Positions 9,246 through 61,970 of a stretch of DNA of 64,000 bases are shown here, piece by piece. Position numbers and translations under genes: made by a program. The DNA comes from Parcubacteria group bacterium Gr01-1014_8. GTDB lineage: Bacteria > Patescibacteriota > Minisyncoccia > Phycocordibacterales > UBA2100. The notes below the pieces were generated by a model that was not told where the DNA came from, did no database searches, and was given only the letters and a program-made list of their open reading frames with translations. The first letter of the stretch is position 1. The number at the start of each line of letters is the position of its first letter. The stretch is from positions 160,001-224,000 of the forward strand of contig VMGC01000001.1 of assembly GCA_007376385.1 (NCBI GenBank). The letters are read 5' to 3'.

Positions 9246-10628
9246 ATGACCGAATCACTCATGGAAAAGATAGTCTCGCTCGCTAAACGGCGTGGGTTCG
9301 TCTATCAAGGTTCGGAAATATACGGCGGCCTTGCGGGTACATGGGACTATGGGCCCCTCGGTGTTGCCCTCAAGAAGAATATCGAGAATTTGTGGTGGAA
9401 GAGATTCGTCTTGGATCGCGAGGATATGTATGGCATCGATGCGGCGCTTCTCATGAATCCTAATGTCTGGAAAGCGAGCGGGCATGTGGATGGGTTTGCT
9501 GACCCGCTTGTCGAGGACGTGAAGACACATAGAAGATACAGAGCGGATCACTTGCTTGAGGAAGCGGGGGTTGACCCTAAGGGAATGACTGCGGCACAGA
9601 TGGACCAGACCCTTAAGGAGAAGGGAATAAGGAGTCCGGATGGCAATACGCTCGGCGATGTGAAGCAGTTCAACATGATGTTCAAGACGAGCATCGGGGC
9701 CTCCGGCGATGAGTCATCAATATCGTATCTTCGGCCGGAAACAGCGCAGGGCATGTTCGTCAACTTTAAGAACGTCATGGATACATTCCATCCTAAATTG
9801 CCGTTTGGCATGGCGCAGATAGGGAAAGCCTTCCGCAATGAGATAGCGCCGAGGGATTTCATCTTTCGAGTGCGAGAACTCGAACAGATGGAAATAGAAT
9901 ATTTCGTGAGACCGGAGGACTGGCGGAAACACTTCGACTACTTTTTAAACGAACAAAAGGATTATCTTACGAAGGATCTGGGGCTGCCGGAACAATATAT
10001 TCACTCTGTTGAGGTTCCTGCGGTCGATAGAGCGCATTATTCCAAGCACAGCGTGGACACAGAGTTCGACTTTCCGTTCGGCCAGAAAGAACTCTTGGGA
10101 CTTGCGTACCGCACAGACTTCGACCTTGGGGCGCATGCAAAAGCGTCCGGCGTTGACCTTTCTTACTATGATGAAGAGACGAAGGAGCGGTTCACTCCGC
10201 ATTGCATCGAGCCGACGTTCGGTGTTGGGCGGCTATTCTTGGCTATTCTATCGGGTGCGTATGCTGAAGATGAGAAGAACGGAGAAGTGCGGACATTCCT
10301 TAAATTCTCTTCTAATGTTGCGCCGGTGAAAGCGGCTGTGTTCCCACTCCTTAAGAACAAGCCGGAACTTGTGGCAAAGGCCAGGGAAGTATATGTGGAC
10401 CTTAAAGTGCAGATACCGCAGCTTATGTGGGATGACAACGGTAACATCGGCAAGCGCTATCGCCGGCAAGATGAGATCGGGACTCCGTACTGCATCACCA
10501 TAGACTTCGATACCCTGGGGGAGAGCGGCGATGAGAAAAAAGATACCGTGACCGTACGGGAGAGAGATACTGGCGAACAGACACGATTGCCCATCAGCGA
10601 GCTCGCAAAAAAAGTGAACGGTTCATGA
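9246..10628 (+). CDS. glyQS: glycine--tRNA ligase (alpha2 homodimeric type)
   Basis: MTESLMEKIVSLAKRRGFVYQGSEIYGGLAGTWDYGPLG..., class II motifs and a C-terminal anticodon-binding domain; 460 aa. Confidence 0.9.
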   Translation: MTESLMEKIVSLAKRRGFVYQGSEIYGGLAGTWDYGPLGVALKKNIENLWWKRFVLDREDMYGIDAALLMNPNVWKASGHVDGFADPLVEDVKTHRRYRADHLLEEAGVDPKGMTAAQMDQTLKEKGIRSPDGNTLGDVKQFNMMFKTSIGASGDESSISYLRPETAQGMFVNFKNVMDTFHPKLPFGMAQIGKAFRNEIAPRDFIFRVRELEQMEIEYFVRPEDWRKHFDYFLNEQKDYLTKDLGLPEQYIHSVEVPAVDRAHYSKHSVDTEFDFPFGQKELLGLAYRTDFDLGAHAKASGVDLSYYDEETKERFTPHCIEPTFGVGRLFLAILSGAYAEDEKNGEVRTFLKFSSNVAPVKAAVFPLLKNKPELVAKAREVYVDLKVQIPQLMWDDNGNIGKRYRRQDEIGTPYCITIDFDTLGESGDEKKDTVTVRERDTGEQTRLPISELAKKVNGS

Positions 10629-10770
10629 AAGGTTTCAAACCCCGGGGCAAGCCGCGGGGTTTTGAACCTTTGCTGCCTGCGCCGCTCGGGAATGCAAAAC
10701 TGCGCTTGTGCGTTTTTCTCGCTATCCTCGACAGATAAAAAAAGAGGCCATTGTGCTACCATAAGAACAT

Positions 10771-30588: not shown

Positions 30589-31578
30589 ATGAAGAAGATT
30601 CTCAAAGGAATAGCGTTCGCCCTTCTGATACCTGGGCTTGCCGTTGCCGCGTTTAATGATGTCACGCTAACCACTGACGTCGTTCTCTCGAGCAATAGCA
30701 TTTCGCTTTCCGTGTATGGCTCCAGCGCAGTGTTGGAGTCGATTGAAGTTGGTAGTGGGAGTTTTACGGTGACAATGCCCAGCGGTTCATCCATAGAAGT
30801 GCGTTCCACAGATCGTAAGGTCATTGAAGTGAGTAACGCTAGTTACATCACGACCAATGTCTGCAGCACAAGCGAATCACGCGTGAGGCTTGAGAACTCG
30901 GGCACGACCGCCACAATTACGGTGACGCCCTCAAGCAGTACCTGCATAGGTTCTGCGAACACGGCAAGTGGCGGCGGAGGCGGAGGTCCGGCTCCTCAAT
31001 GTGAAGACAGTATCGATAACGACAAGGATGGGCTGATAGACATAAAAGATCCAGGCTGTGAAAATGCAGCTGATACCGATGAGACAAATTCGGCTGCTGC
31101 AACCACAGGTACTGCTACCACCACTGTACCAATTGCGACAAGCGCCGCGACAACTACTCTGACAATAAGCACACAAGCAGCGATTTCGACGCAGACGAAT
31201 CAGACTTCTGCAGCGGTGAGTGCGCTTGTTGCGCAATTGAAGACGCTTATTGCTCAGTTAAAAGCGCTCGGCGGCACTGTTTCTCCGAGCCTTGAGGCGA
31301 CAGTGAGCGCGCTTGAGGGTGGGGCCACGCTCCCCGGCGCGACATTTACGCGTGATCTGAAACTCGGCTCGACCGGGGCAGATGTGAAAGCGCTCCAGGT
31401 GTGGCTGAATGCGAATGGATATATGGTATCAGCATCGGGTCCCGGTTCAGTTGGGAATGAGACAATGATGTTCGGTTCGGCTACACGCGCGGCGCTCATT
31501 AAATTCCAAAAGGCAAAAGGCATTACGCCTGCAGCCGGATATTTTGGACCGAAGACTCGCGCAGCATTAGGGATGTAA
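30589..31578 (+). CDS. secreted protein with a C-terminal peptidoglycan-binding domain and a Cys-flanked Asp-rich putative Ca-binding motif
   Basis: Signal peptide MKKILKGIAFALLIPGLAVAA. Linker GGGGGGPAPQCEDSIDNDKDGLIDIKDPGCEN (DxDxDG-type). C-terminal PG_binding_1-like region (ADVKALQVWLNANGY...FGSATRAALIKFQKAKGITPAAGYFGPKTRAAL). Confidence 0.7.
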   Translation: MKKILKGIAFALLIPGLAVAAFNDVTLTTDVVLSSNSISLSVYGSSAVLESIEVGSGSFTVTMPSGSSIEVRSTDRKVIEVSNASYITTNVCSTSESRVRLENSGTTATITVTPSSSTCIGSANTASGGGGGGPAPQCEDSIDNDKDGLIDIKDPGCENAADTDETNSAAATTGTATTTVPIATSAATTTLTISTQAAISTQTNQTSAAVSALVAQLKTLIAQLKALGGTVSPSLEATVSALEGGATLPGATFTRDLKLGSTGADVKALQVWLNANGYMVSASGPGSVGNETMMFGSATRAALIKFQKAKGITPAAGYFGPKTRAALGM

Positions 31579-31716
31579 ATCGGCCCTTTCGAGACCGCAG
31601 GGCGTTTGCCGATTTCTGGCTCCTCGGCTCGGAGATGCAAAAACTGAGTTTTTCTATCTCGCTCGTTCTACGTCGCCAGTAAGAAAAGTAGAGCGTGTAT
31701 AATGCACAGTTTTGAA

Positions 31717-31743
31717 ACAGCGGCGCCCTTTGGGCGCCGCTGT
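31717..31743. promoter_or_regulatory. perfect 12-bp inverted repeat (acagcggcgccc-ttt-gggcgccgctgt) upstream of the hydrolase gene
   Basis: Read directly from the sequence. It sits between a TTGAAA hexamer (31712-31717) and a TATAAT hexamer (31747-31752), 18 nt before the ATG at 31761. Confidence 0.4.
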
Positions 31744-31760
31744 TCTCATATAATGTCAAG

Positions 31761-37690: not shown

Positions 37691-37995
37691 CGCACAACTG
37701 GGCCAGAGAAAGTGGGTTCTGCAGAAATGCAGAGTAATGTCGAAAGACGCCTATCGAGGTCGAACCACTCCTTAGGGAGGGCCTAGATAAAAATTAGTAG
37801 GCCATTTGGGCATAGCGATATTCTCCGCAGTTAAATACGGCTTCGCCTGCTTTTGCCTTCGGCAAAAGATTTAACGGGGCATAAGATCTTCTAACTCGCT
37901 TCGCTCATATGAGAATACTCATATCACGTCTTCGCTCGGATATCATGAAAGCAAGCTTTCGCGATAATCCTCGCTAGCCGTGATAACAAAATCTA

Positions 37996-42131: not shown

Positions 42132-43110
42132 TCGTGCCAAATACGATAGTCCTTTGACAACTGAAGAACGACACAATTCTTGCTCGTAAGAGCAGGAGAA
42201 AAAGAAAGAATAAGAAATTTTCTGAAAAGAAAATTTCTTTTCGCGCCGTCGCTCGCGGATCATGAGAATAAATTCTCGCGATACCGCTCGCTCGGCGCGA
42301 TCAACAACATTGATTCGGCTATTGTCTTTGGCCGGATCAGTGCAGGAAAAAATGTATTTTTGCGCAACCACTTTTCACAACCACAAGGTTGTAGAAAAGT
42401 GCAGTCCTGTAATAGGGAAAGCAAAAATCAAAAACAATCCGCCTTCGCACACGTTGTGTGCTATGGCGGGACAAAGAAAGTCCCGACACGCCAAAAGGTG
42501 TGACGGGCGCAATGCTTGTCCGTCTTGTAGCGGACAAGCAAAGTAATAAACCAATAACGCGGTTCTCAAATTTCCAAACGGGAATTCTGAGAAAGGGCGT
42601 GCGGCGGATGCCTTGACAGAAGAAGGCGATGAAGGACGCAGTTCGGCGGCGATACGCTTCGGGGAGGTGCCAAGCAACCTTCGATCCGGAGATTTCCGAA
42701 TGGGGAAACCCCATAGAGCAACCCTCTATGACTCATGCTCTAAACAGCATAGAGAGCAGACCTTGGGAAGTGAAACATCTCAGTACCAAGAGGAAAAGAG
42801 ACCAATAGGTATTCCCTTAGTAGCGGCGAGCGAAACGGGAAAAGCACAAACTCAGCCACAAAATCGAAGCGCGATTTATTTCGCGAATCGATTTTGGGGA
42901 TGGGGGTTATAAGGCTACAGCGCTAGCAATAGGTAGAGTAAAAAAATGCTTAGTTAGAGGAAGCGCCTGGGAAGGCGCGCAACACAGGGTAATAGCCCCG
43001 TACTCGAAAACGAAGCATCTCTATGGCTGTAGTTCTTGAGTAACTCGAGACATGAATAGCTCGGGTGAATTTGCCGGGACTAACCGGTAATGCTACATAC
43101 TTCTTCTGAT

Positions 43111-43153
<43 letters not shown>

Positions 43154-44660
43154 GGTGAGGGGAGTGAAATAGACCTGAAACCGCATGCCTACAAGGAGTC
43201 GGAGCGGGCACCACAGTGCTCTTGAAATTTTTTGCAGAATTTTTGCAAAAGATCTTTTCGGGTGCAGTGTGGTGTCCGTCACGGCGTGCCTATTGAAGAA
43301 TGAGCCAACGAGTTAATGCATACAGCTGGCTAAGCCCTTTTCGGGTGGAGCCGTAGCGAAAGCGAGTGTGAATAGCGCGACTATAGTTGTATGTATTAGA
43401 CCCGAAGCCAGGTGAGCTACCCATGAGCAGGCTGAAGTTTATAGAAATATAGATGGAGGGCCGAACCCGTAGATTGTGCAACATCTTGGGATGACTTGTG
43501 GGTTGGAGTGAAAAGCTTATCGAACCTGGTAATAGCTGGTTCTCTCCGAAAGAGCTTTCGGGCTCGCGTCATGGATTACATATGGGGGTAGAGCACTGGA
43601 AGAAGCGGATAGGCCGAAAGGCCACTGCCTCTATCAAACTCCGAATACCATATGCGTACCGTGGCAGTTAGACGATGGGGGCGAAGCTCCATTCGTCAAA
43701 AGGGAAACAGCCCAGACCGCCAGTTAAGGTCCCTAAATCTATGCTCAGTGCATTTCCAAGGAGGTGAAATTTCACAGACAGTGAGGATGTTGGCTTAGAA
43801 GCAGCCACCATTCAAAGAAAGCGTAACAGCTCACTCACTCAGAGATTTCGCGCCACAAATGATCGGGGCTTAAGCATAGTACCGAAACTGCGGATTCAGT
43901 ACGTCTTCGGATGTACTGTCTGGTAGGAGAGCGTTCTCTGTGCGATGAAGGTAAAGGGGTGACCCATGCTGGAGCGCAGGGAAGTGAAAATGTTGGCACG
44001 AGTAACCGCAAGGCAGGTGAGATTCCTGCCCGCCGAAAGAACAAGGTTTCCTTCGCAATGGAGATCAACGAAGGGTTAGTCGGTCCTAAGCCAATGGCGA
44101 ATGCCGCAGGCGATGGATTCATGGTTAATATTCCATGACTCGGAATTGGTGCGATGGAGTGACGGAGTGTTGTACCTCAAGCATATTATGGATTTATGTT
44201 CAGGCCGTGAGGATGCTTTTCAGGAAAATCCGGAGAGCACAGTCCAAGCGGAGTGGAAAAGTGGAGGCCTCGGCCGAAACTGATTTGAGGGAGCACGCTT
44301 CCAAGAAAAACTTCTAAGCTTATAACCAATGACGAACCGTACCGCAAACCGACACAGGTGTTCTGGTCGAATAGACTAAGGCGAACGGGTGAGAGATGCT
44401 CAAGGAACTCGGCAAAAAAGTGGCCGTACGTTAGCAATAAGGCCTGCCCAATACAGTGATGTATGGGGCCGCAGATAATTATTCCCAGGCGACTGTTTAC
44501 CAAAAACACAGCTCCCTGCAAACTCGTAAGAGGAAGTATAGGGGGTGATGCCTGACCAATGCCGGAAGGTCAAGTGTGGTCGGTCTCATATAGCAATATA
44601 TGTTGCTGGCACTACATAAGCCCCGGTCAATGTCGGCGATAACTATAATCGTCCTAAGGT

Positions 44661-45360
44661 TTCCCGCTTAAGAAATTGAGCGGGGAAGGACTGGGACGAT
44701 CATAGAATCGAATAAACAGCGAAAGAAAATACCAAAGCTGCCTCTCTGTGCAGTAATGCACAAGTGGTCCTAGAAACATGGCTATATGCTGGAAACCCTA
44801 TGGTATAATTATTCCATAGATGAGTAATCAGCAGGAAAGGCCAGAGATGAAAGGGTGGATCGTCGGTTTTACCGACGGCGAAGGATGCTTTTCAATAAGC
44901 ATGTTTCGCAACAAAACCACCAAGTTTGGTTGGCAAGTATTCCCAGAGTTTGTAATAACTCAGGGAAAGAAAAGTTTGCCAGCACTCGAAACTTTCCAAA
45001 ACTTCTTTAAGTGCGGAAAGATATACGAGAACGCTAGGTACGATAATCATCGTGAATATCTGTATCGATACTGTGTACGATCAATTTCGGATTTGCGGGA
45101 GAAAATAATCCCGTTTTTTCGAAAAAACAAATTGTATACAGCCAAACAAAAAGATTTCGAACTGTTTGCAGATGTCATAGAAAAGGTGTATCGAAAAGAA
45201 CATCTTTTAGAATCGGGATTGCGAGCGATAGCGCGCAAGATCGAACAGATGAATCGCAAGAAGAAATCAACATTTCTGGAATCCTCAGAGACTACACGCC
45301 ATGCCCCTAAATCTAAATAAGATCGGGTGAAGATATAGTCCAAAGGTAATAGGAACCTAG
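44661..45360 (+). mobile_element. group I intron 1 (after the E. coli U1917 equivalent) encoding an intact LAGLIDADG endonuclease
   Basis: The upstream exon ends in T, the intron ends in G (omega-G), and the downstream exon resumes at AGCGAAATTCCT. Conserved R-like (cagagactacacg) and S (gaagatatagtcc) core elements are present. Confidence 0.75.
44820..45320 (+). CDS. LAGLIDADG homing endonuclease (single-motif, 166 aa)
   Basis: Motif IVGFTDGEGCFS with the pattern characteristic of LAGLIDADG homing endonucleases. The 3' end of the ORF overlaps the intron R element. Confidence 0.8.
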   Translation: MSNQQERPEMKGWIVGFTDGEGCFSISMFRNKTTKFGWQVFPEFVITQGKKSLPALETFQNFFKCGKIYENARYDNHREYLYRYCVRSISDLREKIIPFFRKNKLYTAKQKDFELFADVIEKVYRKEHLLESGLRAIARKIEQMNRKKKSTFLESSETTRHAPKSK

Positions 45361-45372
45361 AGCGAAATTCCT

Positions 45373-45681
45373 AGAAGACTGGGACTATCAGTCAAAAACT
45401 ACTGATAGCAAATTCTGCTATATGCTGGAAACTCCGAGTATCCAACAGTACCCTGACGAAATGGAAGGGTAAAAATCTGTTGGTGCGGACAATCAGCAGG
45501 GAAGTCGTAATTGACCCCTCAACGACTACACGCAGAACTCCACGAAGCTCATCAATCCGATGCTGTTTCGGGAGGTGATATAGTCTGAACTGCATGGCGA
45601 CATGCAGAGTTTGGCTCGCGCCAAACCGCTTCAAACAAATTGAAGTCATTATTCTCACTAGAGAATAGTAAGTAACAGAAT
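45373..45681 (+). mobile_element. group I intron 2a (ORF-less; carries a decayed homing-endonuclease N-terminal remnant)
   Basis: Follows the 12-nt exon agcgaaattcct. Contains the R element tcaacgactacacg, the S element gtgatatagtc and a terminal G before the exon TGTCTGGT. Its 5' region is similar to intron 1 (gactgggac..gctatatgctggaaac). The remnant reading frame (aat cag cag gga agt cgt aat tga) parallels the homing-endonuclease 1 N-terminus SNQQERP. Confidence 0.5.
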
Positions 45682-45689
45682 GTGTCTGG

Positions 45690-46149
45690 TAACTGGATTG
45701 CCAGTTAGTACAGCGATGTACTACAAAAGATCCGCCTGTCAGCAATGACGGTAGTAATTCGGCTTATAACGGTGGAATCCTACTCGGAGCACTTTAGACG
45801 AGGTGCGTTGATGAAAGGATAATACCGTGGGAAGTCTTGTGAGTTTCGTGGAGGGCAACCTCCGTGCGAGAGCGCCTCGCCCGGTTGAGGGCGGTCGGTC
45901 GGCATTGGTGCTGACTGTCTGATCTGGAGCCTCTGTCCAGGCTCTCGCATCAATCTTCTCATCATGGTGATGGGAACTTCCACGAAACTCGCAATGACCC
46001 CGTAACGACTTAGCGCGAAAGCGCTGGAAGTGTCTCAAAAACACTTAACACGCCGACTCTGCAATGCGCAGAAGAAGATATAGTCTAATGCCCGAAGTAA
46101 TTCGGGGAGAGTGTCATATTGCGCGAAATATGACGATCAAACTCAAATG
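45690..46149 (+). mobile_element. group I intron 2b (ORF-less; carries a decayed homing-endonuclease remnant homologous to the intron 3 endonuclease)
   Basis: Follows the 8-nt exon tgtctggt. Contains the R-like element cgtaacgacttagc, the S element gaagatatagtc and an omega-G before the exon AAGTTCAGACG. The remnant reading frame is KDNTVGSLVSF..., compared with MDNTVGSLTQL in intron 3; the ATG has been lost. Confidence 0.5.
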
Positions 46150-46699
46150 AAGTTCAGACGCGCACGAATGGTATAACGACTTGGGAACTGTCTCGAGCAT
46201 TTGCCCGGTGAAAATACAAGGGCGGTGAAGATGCCGCCTTCCTGCAGCTAGACGAAAAGACCCCAGAAGCTTTACTGTAATTTGGTATTGAGGATACGAT
46301 TTTTCCGCGTAGCGTAAGTGGGAGGCTTTGAAGCAAGGATCTCGGTTCTTGTGGAGCCGTCAATGCAACACCACTCCTAAAAATTGTATTTTCTAACTTC
46401 CATAGCAAAACTGTGGAAAGACAGTACCTGATGGACAGTTTCGGTGGGGCGCTGTCCTCCTAAAAAGTAACGGAGGAGCCTATTAAGGTCACCTAGGTGC
46501 GAATGGAAACCGTACCGGTAGTGCAATGGCAAAAGGTGGCTTGACTGCGAGTCGTACGTGACAAGCAGGCGCGAAAGCGGAGCATAATGAACCGATGGTT
46601 CGCATTAGATGCGACCAAAGATTAACGGATAAAAGTTACTCTGGGGATAACAGGCTGGTTTCGCCTAAGAGTCCAAATCGACGGCGAAGTTCGGCACCT

Positions 46700-47542
46700 T
46701 AACAAATCGGGGTGCGACGTAAGCAATTACGTAGCTTGGCTCACACATGAGACCAAGAACCAACATGTGTGCAGTTCAAATCGTGGCTTATAACGGTGAA
46801 CTCCATGGTATTATAGAACAATCGTTCTATAGTATATGGACAATACCGTGGGAAGTTTAACTCAATTACAGCGATCAATAATTATCGGTAGTCTCTTAGG
46901 TGATGGCTACTTACGGATCGTACCGCGCAGATACAATGCGTTTCTCGAGATCAATCATTCGTATTCACAAAAAGAATATGTTGATTGGACATTCGAGATG
47001 CTCAAATCGATCTGTAGAAGCGGTCCGAAGATGCGAAACGGAAATGGTGTGCGAATTGCATACCGTTTTACGACTCGTCAAATGCCGGAAATCACCGAAT
47101 TGTTCAAAGTGTTTTATGCCAATGGCAAGAAATAAATTTCGAACAATTTAAGATTAGATCCGATAATGCTTGCTGTATGGTTCATGGATGATGGAAGTAG
47201 GTGTAGCGTTGAGAACGTGTACCTTAATACTCAGCAGTTTAATTTCGATGATCAAGAAAAATGCAGGGCAATGCTCATGCGGCTTGGTATCGAAACAACT
47301 CTCAATAAGGACAAGAAGTATTTGAGAGTGAGGATAAAAACATCCTCAATCCCAAAACTTCATAAAATTATCTCACCGCACATCATTCCATCCATGAAAT
47401 ATAAATTGGGTTATAACCCCGTAGAGACTCGCTTCTTCGGAAGCGGAGTTACTGACTCTGTAATGAGCAGTAGCTAACACGCCACCTCCTTTCAATAGAA
47501 AGGATGATGATATAGTCCGATCCTTCCAGTAATGGAAGAAAA
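46700..47542 (+). mobile_element. group I intron 3 (near the E. coli 2499/2500 equivalent) with a double-motif LAGLIDADG gene
   Basis: The upstream exon ends ...GGCACCT, the intron ends ...cattG, and the downstream exon resumes CGATGTCGGCTCATC. The S element is gatgatatagtcc. Confidence 0.7.
46836..47477 (+). pseudogene. double-motif LAGLIDADG homing endonuclease interrupted by a single in-frame TAA (47133-47135)
   Basis: First motif IIGSLLGDGYL and second motif LAVWFMDDGS are in the same reading frame. The 30 nt between the stop and the next ATG also read in frame (ISNNLRLDPI), consistent with one ancestral ORF of about 213 aa. Confidence 0.7.
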
Positions 47543-47786
47543 AATGACATTGCGATGTCGGCTCATCTTAGCGCGGGGCTGGAGAAGGTCCCAAGCGTAT
47601 GGCTGTTCGCCATTTAAAAAGGTACGTGAGCTGGGTTCAAACCGTCGTGAGACAGGTTGGTCTTAATCTGCTGTAGGCGTTGATTCTTGAGGAGACTCAT
47701 TTTTAGTACGAGAGGACCGAAATGAACTGACCTCTGGTCTGGGGGCTGTAGTACCAACTGCATCGCCCCGTAGCTATGTCGGGATT

Positions 47787-47819
<33 letters not shown>

Positions 47820-48002
47820 GACTCCAAGATTAGGAATCGTTATAGACTCGTGGGAGATGACCACGTTGATAGGCACCAGGTGGAAGCGCAGTAATGCGTT
47901 GAGCCGAGGTGTACTAATTAGTCGACAGAATTCTCGAAAGGAATTTTGGGAGTCGCGATACTGGTTTATTGCGACGAGCGAGGACGAAGCGAAAATTTAT
48001 TG

Positions 48003-48090
48003 GCGACGTAGGGCGAGAGAAGCGAAAATGTACTCATTTTCATTTCCGAGCCGAGGAGCCAAAATAGGGTCGAATACCCTTTATTTTCAT
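48003..48090 (+). repeat. conserved ~88-bp element, copy A (23S-5S spacer)
   Basis: gcgacgtagggcgagagaagcgaaaatgtactcattttcatttccgagccgaggagccaaaatagggtcgaataccctttattttcat. It shares an identical 30-mer (gtactcattttcatttccgagccgaggagc) with copy B at 61884-61970, and about 80% identity overall. Confidence 0.6.
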
Positions 48091-48256
48091 TTCGTCCGAG
48101 CGAAGGCGCAACAAAGGGTTACTACCCTTTATTGCGAAGTAACAAAACGCATTCTTTCTTTCTGTGGTTCGCCGAAGCTCGCACAAGCGAGCGTAGGAGA
48201 CTGCATTGTGTCGTTCTTCGGTTGCCGAAGGCAAAGTTCATTGCAATTGAAGTTTT

Positions 48257-48367
48257 TGTTCTGGTGATTTATCGCTGGGGTCACACCTGTTCTCATTCCG
48301 AACACAGTAGTTAAGCCCAGTTGAGGCGATGGTAGTCGCAAGGCGAGAGTAGCTAGTCGCCAGAACA
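48257..48367 (+). rRNA. rrf: 5S ribosomal RNA
   Basis: ctggtga...tcacacctgttctcattccgaacacagtagttaagcccag...gatggtagt...gagagtag...tcgccag. Helix I pairs (ctggtga / tcgccag) and loop C is conserved. Confidence 0.85.
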
Positions 48368-59835: not shown

Positions 59836-60912
59836 ATGAGCCACAAAATCCTCATTACTGGCGCCGCCGGCTATGTCGGTTTTATGCTAGTAGAGCAATT
59901 TTCGAAGCGCTCCGATGTGGAGAAAATAATCGCACTTGATAAAGAGGTAATGCCCGAATCCTTCAAGAAAGACCCGAAAATTCTTTACATTCAGGCGAAT
60001 ACAAGTGATGAGTGGGAGGCAAAAGTCGCACAACAGGCGCCTGACATCATTGTCCATGCCGCATGGCATATCCGCGACATCTACGGCAATAGTTCGAAGC
60101 AGTGGAAGTGGAATATCGCTGGTTCAGACAAGGTATTCGATTTTGCCTTCTCGCAACATTCTGTGCAAAGGCTCGTCTATTTTTCGACGGTTGCATCCTA
60201 TGCGCCGTATCCGGAGAATGAAATATCCCACGTGTTCACGGAAGAATCGCCATTTCGTTCGAGCGATTATCGCTACGCAGAAGAAAAACGCATAAGCGAA
60301 ATGCATTTGGAAGAAAAATATAAGGTTGCTACTGCAAAAAGAAAAGACATTTCTGTGTTTGTCGTTCGTCCTGCAGCCATATCCGGACCGCGCGGACGTT
60401 TTTCAAGGATTCGATTTGGCTTGCAATCGGCGCTCTCGGGTCAGCTTTCAGGTTCTTTCGTGTACAGAATCGTGACGCTTCTTACGTCGTTCGTGCCTGC
60501 GACGCCAAAATGGGCCAGGCAGTTCGTGCACGAAGATGACGTCGTTGATATTGTCGAGCTTCTCGCGTTTGACGCACCGCAATCAGGATATGATGTATTC
60601 AATCTCTGCCCGCCTGGAGAGCCGGTCTTGGCGAAAGACATGGCGCAGGCGGTTGGGAAGCGCATCCTGCCAATGCACCCCCTGCTCATTCGTTTTGCTT
60701 TTTTCCTCATGTGGCATCTTTCCCTTGGAAAGATCCCGACGACGAGGGGCGCATGGAAAGGATACTCGTATCCGATAATTGTTGATGGGAGCAAGATAAC
60801 GAAAAAGTATGGATACACCTATCGTATGGCTTCTAAAGATGCGTTCGTCTACACTGATGGCAGGTATGAGGGTGCCATACCTCGCATGTACTTGAAAAGA
60901 AAAACAGCATGA
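59836..60912 (+). CDS. NAD-dependent epimerase/dehydratase (extended SDR)
   Basis: Rossmann motif ITGAAGYVG and a YxxxK-type catalytic region; 358 aa. Confidence 0.75.
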   Translation: MSHKILITGAAGYVGFMLVEQFSKRSDVEKIIALDKEVMPESFKKDPKILYIQANTSDEWEAKVAQQAPDIIVHAAWHIRDIYGNSSKQWKWNIAGSDKVFDFAFSQHSVQRLVYFSTVASYAPYPENEISHVFTEESPFRSSDYRYAEEKRISEMHLEEKYKVATAKRKDISVFVVRPAAISGPRGRFSRIRFGLQSALSGQLSGSFVYRIVTLLTSFVPATPKWARQFVHEDDVVDIVELLAFDAPQSGYDVFNLCPPGEPVLAKDMAQAVGKRILPMHPLLIRFAFFLMWHLSLGKIPTTRGAWKGYSYPIIVDGSKITKKYGYTYRMASKDAFVYTDGRYEGAIPRMYLKRKTA

Positions 60913-61862
60913 AGATACTTGTTACCGGTGCAGCAGGATTTATTGGTTCTCACTTGGCGGAGCGGTTGGTGAAGGACGGGCATATCGTAATAGCTCTTGA
61001 TTGCTTCACTGATTACTACGATGTGCGCATTAAAGAGATAAATGCAGGAGAAGTCCAAAGTGCAGGAGCGAAATTCTTGAAATTAGACCTCGCGGAGGAC
61101 GATCTCGTTGGTGCGGTCAGCGGCGTGGAGGCGATATTTCACTGTGCGGCACAACCGGGTATCTCTTCGTCAACGCCATTTGAATCGTATGTGCGAAACA
61201 ATATTGTCGCGACAGAGCGTTTGCTTCTCGCCGCGGAAAAAGAGCCGTCACTAAAAGTGTTCATTAACTTTGCGACCTCATCGGTCTATGGTGTGCACGC
61301 AAATGGCAATGAGACGATGGAGCCAAGGCCTGCATCATATTACGGCGTTACCAAGCTTGCTGCAGAACAGCTGGTTCTTGCGAGGGCGAGGAGCCGGGGT
61401 TTTCCGGGAATTTCACTCCGTATCTTTTCTGTGTACGGGGAGCGCGAACGGCCGGAGAAGCTCTATCATAAATTGACGAAGGCGATACTTGAAGACACGC
61501 CATTTCCGCTTTTTGATGGTTCACGAGAACACGTGCGAAGTTTTACGTATGTCGGGGACATCGTTGAAGCGTGCACGCAGGTTCTTGCCGCATACGAAGC
61601 ATGCATCGGGGAGATCTTCAATGTGGGCAACGATACAACACATACTACCGACGAAGGAATCAATTTGATCGAAGGTTTAGTCGGTAAAAAAGCTACATTC
61701 GAGATGCAACCAGCACGACCTGGCGACCAACATGATACTGCCGCGAATATTGCGAAAGCACATGCTGCATTTGGGTTTGCTCCTAAAACTGACCTTCGTG
61801 AAGGATTGAAACGAGAGGTGGACTGGTACAGAGCCAAAATTTATGGCAAGCTTCGTCCTTAG
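60909..61862 (+). CDS. NAD-dependent nucleotide-sugar epimerase/dehydratase (UDP-glucose 4-epimerase/UDP-glucuronate decarboxylase-like)
   Basis: VTGAAGFIGSHL and YGVTKLAAE (the YxxxK motif). The start overlaps the previous stop. Confidence 0.85.
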   Translation: MKILVTGAAGFIGSHLAERLVKDGHIVIALDCFTDYYDVRIKEINAGEVQSAGAKFLKLDLAEDDLVGAVSGVEAIFHCAAQPGISSSTPFESYVRNNIVATERLLLAAEKEPSLKVFINFATSSVYGVHANGNETMEPRPASYYGVTKLAAEQLVLARARSRGFPGISLRIFSVYGERERPEKLYHKLTKAILEDTPFPLFDGSREHVRSFTYVGDIVEACTQVLAAYEACIGEIFNVGNDTTHTTDEGINLIEGLVGKKATFEMQPARPGDQHDTAANIAKAHAAFGFAPKTDLREGLKREVDWYRAKIYGKLRP

Positions 61863-61883
61863 AACCGCCTAAGTCTCTTATTA

Positions 61884-61970
61884 GCGACGTAGAGCGAGTG
61901 AAGTGAAAGTGTACTCATTTTCATTTCCGAGCCGAGGAGCTAACAAGGGTAGAATATCCTTTATTTTCAT
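61884..61970 (+). repeat. conserved ~88-bp element, copy B (immediately upstream of, and in frame with, folD)
   Basis: gcgacgtagagcgagtgaagtgaaagtgtactcattttcatttccgagccgaggagctaacaagggtagaatatcctttattttcat. See copy A at 48003-48090. Confidence 0.6.

Follow-up and report, generated by a model that had tools for sequence, protein, structure and literature searches.

The window analysed here is a 64,000-nt stretch of the genome of Parcubacteria group bacterium Gr01-1014_8 (contig VMGC01000001.1, positions 160,001 to 224,000). It carries a 23S rRNA gene followed by a 5S rRNA gene and, further downstream, an epimerase gene followed by folD. The 23S gene is 5.36 kb long because of insertions and contains a group I intron. 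The epimerase is assigned by Pfam, and the folD start is confirmed by FolD homologs. A short repeat lies in the 23S-5S spacer (copy A) and again between the epimerase gene and folD (copy B). Copy B fills a 106-nt gap between the epimerase stop at 61862 and the folD ATG at 61969, and its 3′ end (...CCTTTATTTTC) adjoins the folD start codon. A search for homologs of the gene downstream of 5S returned that protein itself and no other. At the Rfam gathering threshold, the window yields the 23S, the 5S, and the group I intron only, leaving the repeat unmatched. The coordinates of the element, its parts, and the rRNA features are collected in Table 1.

Table 1. Copies of the element, their parts, and the rRNA features of the window; R1 is the covariance model of the element.
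Feature	Position	Strand	Evidence or sequence
Canonical copy A, 23S-5S spacer	47997..48090	+	R1 88.2 bits, E 4e-25; fold z = -3.6
Copy A, 5′ TTAT	47997-48000		
Copy A, P1	47998-48004 with 48058-48064		
Copy A, GA-rich 5′ loop	48005-48018		
Copy A, P2	48019-48030 with 48035-48046; loop 48031-48034		
Copy A, 3′ loop	48047-48057		CGAGCCGAGGA
Copy A, P3 hairpin	48066-48080		
Copy A, tail	48080-48088		TTTATTTTC
Diverged variant-type sister element enclosing A	47966..48133	+	nested minimum-free-energy fold
Sister element, 5′ half			TTATTGCG-AC-GAGCGAG-GACGAAGCGAAAAT
Sister element, 3′ half			...TTTCGTC-CGAGCGAAGG-CGCAA
Sister element, own P3	48113-48130		terminal TTAT at 48129-48132
Canonical copy B, epimerase-folD gap	61878..61970	+	R1 85.6 bits, E 2.6e-24
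Canonical copy C, CTG/CAG class, TTAC at both junctions	31579..31682	-	R1 68.6 bits, E 6e-19
D1, probable diverged relative	37906..37986	-	R1 21.5 bits, E 4e-4 (match 37988-37918); fold z = -2.1
D2, probable diverged relative	10628..10738	-	R1 19.0 bits, E 2.5e-3 (match 10739-10667); fold z = -3.2
D3, probable diverged relative	42210..42306	-	R1 17.3 bits, E 9e-3 (match 42306-42234)
23S rRNA gene	42579..47938	+	Rfam LSU_rRNA_bacteria 2090.8 bits
Group I intron in 23S gene	45363-45607		Rfam
5S rRNA gene	48260..48365	+	Rfam 5S_rRNA 73.9 bits

Copies A and B share the 30-mer GTACTCATTTTCATTTCCGAGCCGAGGAGC, which has exactly two matches in the window, at 48030-48059 and 61911-61940. None of 100 shuffles reproduced a match, so the 30-mer common to both copies is not expected by chance, and the original prediction of an identical core holds. 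The repeat of about 88 bp and about 80% identity that it described is likewise real, with a somewhat longer extent and a higher similarity: 47997-48088/90 corresponds to 61878-61968/70, and global alignment gives 82 identical positions out of 92 (89%) with one 1-nt indel. A repeat finder divides the match into 47997-48062 with 61878-61943 at 91% and 48066-48090 with 61946-61970 at 92%. The short hairpin AGGGTcgaatACCCT / AGGGTAgaaTATCCT is present in the copies as predicted, and both end in the common tail (C/T)CCTTTATTTTCAT.

Copy A is itself nested inside a sister element. The 5′ half of this sister lies upstream of A, and its 3′ half and own P3 lie downstream; the 179 nt of 47962-48140 form a single nested fold at -65.6 kcal/mol (z = -5.6). 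The degenerate partial duplication noted beside A in the original prediction is therefore genuine but constitutes merely one arm of this nested arrangement, which extends over ~47966-48133.

Beyond A and B, the covariance model R1, run on the window without filters, recovers a third canonical copy (C) and the weaker relatives D1, D2, and D3, for a window total of three canonical copies and about four diverged ones, including the sister that encloses A. The original prediction had noted neither copy C nor D1, D2, and D3. All are intergenic according to Pfam assignments of the flanking genes. Copy C is inserted in antisense behind a PG_binding_1 gene, after its stop codon (TAA, 31576-31578) and before its terminator hairpin (31715-31745); the repeat finder also detects it, as the minus-strand arms I3, I10, and I14. 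D1 is located 10 nt upstream of rplJ (Pfam) on the opposite strand and consists of a P1 stem (TTATCACG/CGTGATA), a core (AGCGAG ... CGAGCGAAGA), and a P3 hairpin (ATATGAG/CTCATAT). D2 lies between genes for a class II aaRS and an AI-2E transporter (Pfam) and is antisense to both. D3 sits in the 23S leader, upstream of the gene, in antisense to the rRNA. Its P1 measures 8 bp and its P3 12 bp, its core reads GAGCGAG/CGAGCGA, and it folds at -47.8 kcal/mol (z = -5.9). The three relatives keep the canonical layout of P1, GAGCGAG ... CGAGCGA, P2, and P3.

Read 5′ to 3′ on its own strand, the element consists of a TTAY tetranucleotide, the 5′ strand of P1, a 5′ loop, P2, a 3′ loop, the 3′ strand of P1, P3, and a 3′ end of the form ...TTTAY or ...CCTATAT, with a total length of about 95-200 nt. 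P1 is a 7-bp closing stem with invariant inner GC/GC pairs, followed by three covarying ones (UUA/UAA, CUG/CAG, CGA/UCG, UAA/UUA, and UUG/CAA). It encloses a GA-rich internal loop with GACGUAGRGCGAG and one variable base on the 5′ side and CGAGCCGAGGA on the 3′ side. P2 is a fully covarying stem of ~12 bp with a purine-rich 5′ strand and a cap that is usually UAAU or UACU, and it sometimes holds an inserted GAGCGAAGCG-type module. P3, the second hairpin, ranges widely in length (20-100+ nt) and can contain GC-rich hairpin modules. The inserted modules carry stable loops of the RNA type (CUUG, UUCG), and many P3 hairpins contain the T-loop-like GGUUCAAUACC.

The predicted pairing is strongly supported by covariation. 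In a gapless alignment of 44 different copies, 94.1% of paired cells are complementary, compared with 35-49% when the partners are slid; 14 of the 19 pairs show compensatory changes on both sides, and none of 500 shuffles reaches the observed values. Pairing in P3 is likewise kept despite changes in sequence, as in AAACCGG/CCGGTTT, ATATAGG/CCTATAT, and AAAGGG/CCCTTT. Mismatches in P2 comprise 49 G-T and 20 A-C, an excess indicating that the structure belongs to one strand, as RNA or as single-stranded DNA. The GCGAG and CGAGC segments flanking P2 could pair as G-C, C-G, G.A, A.G, and G-C, judging from their sequences, and this core is the sole part of the loop kept in the diverged window copies. 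Part of the apparent invariance at 23 loop positions comes from the search pattern itself, and secondary copies recovered by the covariance model carry 1-3 changes in the conserved loop blocks. An unpaired GTAG stands 1 nt 5′ of the extended hairpin (GAC-GTAG-A-[GCGAG...CGAGC]) in all pattern-selected copies.

An open frame (M/V-YSFSFPSRGA...) passes through both A and B. Because the stems covary and the spacing of the blocks varies from 28 to 45 nt, a coding repeat is ruled out, and the original prediction that the element is not protein-coding is borne out. A resemblance to 5S loop E (GAUGGUAG against the GACGUAG of the element) was also considered and rejected; a permissive Rfam search of the copy A region gives no 5S match to the element.

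The family extends far beyond the window. The pattern GCGACGTAG-N25-45-CCGAGCCGAGGAGC, built from two blocks common to the three canonical window copies, was scanned against one genome per species and matched at least 117 stretches. All but two of those listed have the full architecture, giving at least 115 copies from at least 86 assemblies; the two exceptions (L064 and L117) are high-GC chance matches that lack the element structure. Nearly all are Patescibacteria; the assemblies carry the names Kaiser-, Yonath-, Nomura-, Vogel-, Komeili-, Buchanan-, Doudna-, and Shapirobacteria or Parcubacteria/Paceibacterota, or are third-party MAGs with loose labels. The covariance model adds ~12 extra copies within the 8-kb flanks of other copies, and the two-block pattern has no match in 2.9 million viral contigs. 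A full-text literature search on the element sequence, on CPR repeats, and on CPR RNA motifs returned no description of the family, and nine other loci compared with Rfam gave no match to the element. It is thus a structured repeat family spread across Patescibacteria, mainly in lineages of the Parcubacteria/Paceibacteria type, and apparently undescribed. The original prediction had pictured a miniature mobile element or structured nucleic-acid module and had named presence at these two sites only, with none in related genomes, as evidence against it. Such a restriction is clearly contradicted by this distribution, and what is new here is the scale and anatomy of the family.

The edges of the element are sharply defined. 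Across 114 copies, the 5′ edge reads T (.92), T (.94), A (.99), and Y (T.79, C.20). The Y of this tetranucleotide pairs with the third base after the GC of P1, as U-A in 31 cases and C-G in 12. Among elements with a 5′ TTAC, 11 of 13 also have TTAC at the 3′ end, and the A and C in that position are not accounted for by P3 pairing. Elements of the T class end in TTTAT or CCTATAT, and many have CCTATAT in place of TTAT. Pairing of P1 and P3 with overlapping stretches of a single central segment can account in part for the terminal direct repeat. Reading of the sequences reveals no terminal inverted repeats; when the 5′ end (TTATTAGCGACG...) is set against the 3′ end in reverse complement (e.g. 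TAATATAGTCCC...), only an AT-rich TAATA is common to both. Upstream of position -7 the information content is zero, which means that no promoter lies at a fixed distance. A sigma-70 promoter scan around copies A, B, and C found none, and a terminator scan flagged only the weak P3 of copy A. About 15-20% of copies have a terminator-like hairpin directly upstream whose T-tail runs into the element.

Comparison of copies within one genome points to mobility. Same-genome pairs (L047/L056, L057/L073, two in L006, and A/B) are near-identical from the junction TTTATT/GGCG to the end of CCCTTTATT, and their flanks beyond these edges are unrelated. Such pairs can differ by whole internal hairpin modules. 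In a Logan contig from the same organism, the sequence stops 45 nt past the epimerase gene, inside copy B, as expected of an assembly at a repeat.

The site of copy C is empty in a syntenic relative. In Kaiserbacteria JACRFI01 (JACRFI010000021, L124), which has the nearest match (70% identity) to the lipase-like protein encoded downstream, the order of the PG_binding and lipase-like genes is kept, as are the surroundings of the stop codon, a GT.G.GCG...AATGCACAG stretch, and the GCGGCGCC terminator hairpin. The spacer there is 69 nt long and has no R1 match, and the window has ~104-110 extra nt exactly between the stop codon and the GT.G.GCG...AATGCACAG stretch. On the element strand, the junctions of copy C read TTTTC[TTAC-TGGCG...GCCGAT]TTAC-ATCCC, in which the 3′ TTAC is complementary to a host GTAA containing the stop codon. 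With a relative at just 70% protein identity, it is formally possible that the JACRFI01 site reflects a deletion.

At folD, three relatives with FolD proteins 73-81% identical have no element, and the folD start overlaps the end of the preceding gene or lies right against it (ATGA or TAAtATG). The comparison does not amount to a clean empty site, since the window's epimerase and the gene upstream of folD in the relatives are not orthologs (29% identity). Relatives retrieved with FolD from JGI metagenomes were all 37% identical or less, too distant to serve in an empty-site comparison.

Neither the orientation nor the neighbourhood of the element follows a host gene. So far as crude gene calling of the flanking ORFs allows, 28 copies lie in sense between co-directional genes and 17 in antisense, divergent and convergent gene pairs enclose 19 and 18 copies respectively, and orientation is about random. 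Clustering of the 648 ORFs within 3 kb of the at least 115 copies yields no family present at more than 4 loci; the largest cluster among the copies listed comprises histidine kinases at 4 loci. Recurring neighbours are housekeeping genes such as those for histidine kinase, LepA, ThyA, ValRS, NusA, RecJ, and similar. At 64 of 97 loci, the strand that is locally richer in G is the one carrying the top strand of the element (p = 0.002). This bias is modest, and co-orientation with transcription could be an alternative cause. A tblastn search for Y1/RAYT proteins over ~0.83 Mb around the elements, a weak test that used three query sequences (RAYT, IS200, and IS608 TnpA), gave nothing below E = 0.4.

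Occurrence in any intergenic context and in either orientation does not fit an rRNA-processing site, a role that the original prediction had entertained, or a folD regulator. The element is neither a 23S-5S processing signal nor a folD-specific signal; the closest relatives have no spacer before folD at all. A riboswitch reading of copy B was discarded for the same reasons, namely the overlap of folD with its upstream gene in relatives and the occurrence of the element in any context. The more general suggestion of a nucleotide-level RNA or DNA module or miniature mobile element is upheld by the covariation, the dispersal over at least 86 assemblies, and the mobile behaviour.

Several features of the element resemble those of IS200/IS605 insertion sequences. 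IS608 inserts 3′ of TTAC, which it recognises through base pairs formed with the foot of a subterminal hairpin (PMC3201880). The element similarly has no terminal inverted repeats, a strand-specific structure, and a hairpin near each end, and TTAY stands immediately 5′ of it, both at the 5′ edge across 114 copies and at the TTAC junctions of copy C. Its flanking tetranucleotide is complementary to bases at the hairpin foot, and the TTAC or TTAT class covaries with that base. For IS200/IS605 elements, action on the lagging-strand template has been reported (PMC6006769, PMC5027513), a template that the locally G-rich strand may mark; the orientation of the element is biased to the G-rich strand at the 64 of 97 loci, and transcription could contribute to this bias. 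Unlike these insertion sequences, the element has no TnpA that the tblastn search could find in ~0.83 Mb with three queries, and its P1/P2 and P3 differ in sequence and shape, whereas IS200/IS605 ends carry similar hairpins. The same tetranucleotide recurs at its 3′ end, where IS608 has TCAA, and its conserved part is a large GA-rich internal loop maintained over whole bacterial classes.

The element also resembles REP/REPIN sequences as an extragenic, hairpin-forming, non-autonomous repeat that often lies just downstream of genes or terminators. It carries the mark of REP sequences mobilised by RAYT, a GTAG or GTGG 0-2 nt 5′ of a hairpin (PMC6006769). REP sequences, in contrast, measure 20-40 bp and commonly occur as inverted pairs, while the element measures 95-200 nt and occurs as single units. 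Its basal stem is not fully paired, as it contains putative tandem G.A mismatches and a bulge, and its sequence is not species-specific, being distributed over several candidate classes and at least 86 assemblies. Unlike REP sequences, it also lies between divergent genes and has no RAYT found nearby; no RAYT gene flanked by repeats was found within 3 kb of the copies listed.

Other repeat families share the general appearance of the element. The pneumococcal BOX, enterobacterial ERIC, and Neisseria Correia repeats are of similar size, strongly structured by prediction, and intergenic, with a modular build that includes optional internal hairpin modules and co-transcription with neighbouring genes. 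They have no sequence similarity to the element and are each confined to one genus or family, whereas the element spans many classes of a phylum-level group and lacks the terminal inverted repeats and TA duplications of the Correia type. A classical DDE-derived MITE was rejected, since the ends share only TAATA and form no terminal inverted repeats. TIGR units were rejected as well: they are defined as tandem arrays beside a tas (Nop-domain) gene with variable loop spacers (PMC12045711), whereas the element is dispersed, has conserved loops, and is accompanied by no such gene. No Rfam 15 family, including GA-cis, ZTP, THF, and the L10 leader, reaches its gathering threshold on the element.

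Copies A and B are probably members of a Patescibacteria family of short, non-coding, structured interspersed repeats with non-autonomous mobile (duplicative) behaviour. The defined architecture, the sharp TTAY edges, the several copies per genome at unrelated sites in both orientations, and the absence from an orthologous site together lead to the assignment of non-autonomous mobile behaviour. The element would move as a single strand, with the GA-rich hairpin serving as the recognition site for a trans-acting enzyme. Integration would take place next to TTAY in T-rich intergenic DNA, such as terminator tails and the complements of TAA stop codons. By analogy, the best guess for the route is one like the peel-and-paste of IS200/IS605 and REP-RAYT elements. 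After insertion, the element joins host transcripts, as part of the pre-rRNA spacer (A), the folD 5′ UTR (B), or an antisense 3′ UTR (C). It is therefore filed as working like a single-strand, hairpin-recognised, non-autonomous element and not as a member of IS200/IS605 or REP-RAYT, in view of the dissimilar hairpins, the long single unit, the non-species-specific sequence, and the lack of Y1/RAYT near the copies.

An alternative account, in which the element is primarily a functional structured RNA, is doubtful. Its loops would then serve the host, whether by binding proteins, by directing RNA processing, by stabilising RNA, or as a self-cleaving ribozyme, and the copies would be paralogous RNA genes or cis modules. 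The strong covariation and the excess of G-U over A-C are consistent with this account, as are the conserved purine-rich loops with their possible tandem sheared G.A pairs (GCGAG/CGAGC), whose core is kept in diverged variants. So are the stable RNA-type loops CUUG and UUCG in the modules, the T-loop-like GGUUCAAUACC in many P3 hairpins, and the conservation of sequence across classes. Copies A and B are also necessarily transcribed, given their positions in the pre-rRNA spacer and between co-directional genes. However, there is no conserved promoter, some copies begin directly in the T-tail of an upstream terminator, and orientation relative to genes is about random, with C, D1, D2, and D3 all antisense. 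Neither synteny nor an associated gene accompanies the element, a close relative lacks it at the site of copy C, and no Rfam family matches it. Host function and mobility are not mutually exclusive. Selfish repeats do not usually keep their loop sequences from class to class, and this conservation suggests that the loop has a conserved partner or serves the host.

That the element belongs to an already described family, whether a REP/REPIN mobilised by RAYT, a MITE bearing terminal inverted repeats, a TIGR unit, or an Rfam family such as GA-cis or a folate/ZTP riboswitch, is highly improbable. The unpaired GTAG 1 nt 5′ of the extended hairpin recalls the GTAG-tagged REPs (PMC3733652, PMC6006769), but the length of 95-200 nt, the lack of inverted pairs, the breadth across species, and the absence of a nearby RAYT oppose a REP. 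Arrays of TIGR stem-loops are reported in CPR bacteria (PMC12045711), but the loops of the element are invariant where TIGR has variable spacers, and its units are dispersed and not arrayed. The absence of terminal inverted repeats opposes the MITE. At E <= 10, the sole Rfam match to the element in the copy A region is GA-cis (RF02987), a weak local likeness of a GAGGAG...hairpin...UUU segment at 14.7 bits against a gathering threshold of 34.7; it has an E of about 1, covers P3 alone, is unmatched in the nine other loci, and is taken as chance. The position of copy B upstream of folD recalls a folate riboswitch, but no ZTP/THF match appears in the copy A region at E <= 10 or in copy B and the rest of the window at the gathering threshold, and relatives have no leader at all before folD. 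Finally, there is next to no chance that the repeat is a fortuitous or purely local duplication or the remnant of a coding repeat without wider meaning. The open frame through A and B is the one feature in its favour, and it is opposed by the empty shuffles, the at least 115 further copies in at least 86 assemblies, the variable block spacing, and substitutions that are compensatory and not codon-preserving.

A bolder and rather improbable reading takes the invariant GA-rich hairpin as an active nucleic-acid module and not as a passive binding site. It would be either a new self-cleaving or self-processing ribozyme or a single-stranded guide that reads its own TTAY by base-pairing. If true, either would establish a new class of very small mobile elements, restricted to candidate-phyla-radiation bacteria and moved by an enzyme so far unconnected with transposition. 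Conservation of the GA-rich internal loop points to a conserved protein partner or catalytic activity, and the putative partner is a concrete target for biochemistry.

For annotation, these elements are not to be read as rRNA-processing signals, riboswitches, or small ORFs. They explain some assembly breaks and some odd rRNA-operon spacers, and they rewrite 5′ and 3′ UTRs; in this window they make up the entire leader of folD and a portion of the pre-rRNA. The genomes of Patescibacteria are very small and streamlined, and repeats are usually said to be scarce in them. A structured mobile element present in many of their lineages would be a useful marker of genome dynamics and horizontal exchange in these uncultured bacteria.

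The element is modular in its build. Near-identical copies differ by entire internal hairpin modules, which appear as indels of 60-100 nt between element-bearing stretches outside the window (L047 vs L056, L057 vs L073, and L035 vs L071). The modules are GC-rich stems whose loop is CUUG, UCU, or UUCG, and AATACC stands in front of each one. A GAGCGAAGCGAG-like motif is repeated in the P2 loops, within P3, and after the diverged relative D1 (window 37895-37910). In some genomes among the matches listed, two copies of the element lie head-to-tail, approximately 10-20 nt apart, and the second copy is often degenerate.

Repeat copies also make up part of both flanks of the 23S rRNA gene: diverged relative D3 in the leader, and the nested pair around canonical copy A in the trailer. 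A long-range inverted repeat, which is probably the pre-23S processing stem, encloses the gene and both element-bearing spacers, leaving a leader of 390 nt and a trailer of 256 nt within it. The 23S gene itself carries a group I intron and LAGLIDADG homing-endonuclease ORFs, of which the adjacent pair looks like a single gene broken by a frameshift or stop. No tRNA genes and no 16S rRNA gene were found across the 64-kb window, so that 23S and 5S form a pair not linked to the 16S gene.

Coordinates of features in and around the 23S rRNA gene, at the folD loci, and of head-to-tail element pairs
Feature	Location	Remark
23S rRNA gene	42579-47938	5.36 kb vs 2.9-kb model
Group I intron	45363-45607	inside 23S rRNA gene
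LAGLIDADG homing-endonuclease ORF	44820-45320	inside 23S rRNA gene
LAGLIDADG homing-endonuclease ORFs, pair	46836-47135 and 47166-47477	inside 23S rRNA gene
Long-range inverted repeat	42151-42188 and 48194-48231	38 nt, 79% complementary
Two epimerase/dehydratase genes	59836-61862	5' of folD in the window
Epimerase of relative L129	1591-2499	before folD
Epimerase of relative L131	1596-2504	before folD
Head-to-tail element pair	L093 5642-5769	
Head-to-tail element pair	L099 6684-6836	
Head-to-tail element pair	L069 24-98 and downstream	

D1 lies upstream of rplJ (L10) on the opposite strand, 10 nt from the start codon (window 37906-37995). Ahead of rplJ there is no match to the Rfam L10-leader and no obvious Shine-Dalgarno sequence. 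Canonical copy B, behind which no obvious Shine-Dalgarno sequence precedes folD, sits exactly at a gene-replacement junction in a polysaccharide-synthesis locus. Two epimerase/dehydratase genes lie 5' of folD in the window; in the relatives, a single epimerase that is not orthologous to the window's (29% identity) precedes folD, and its stop overlaps the folD start.

Among the matches listed, several element-bearing third-party MAGs carry the label Gammaproteobacteria or Roseivirgaceae, and Saccharibacteria is the label on many (carriers noted for their record titles: L006, L010, L013, L034, L047, L056, and L078). The presence of the element, together with the genes around it, makes these names look like wrong assignments or the result of contaminating contigs from Parcubacteria-type genomes.
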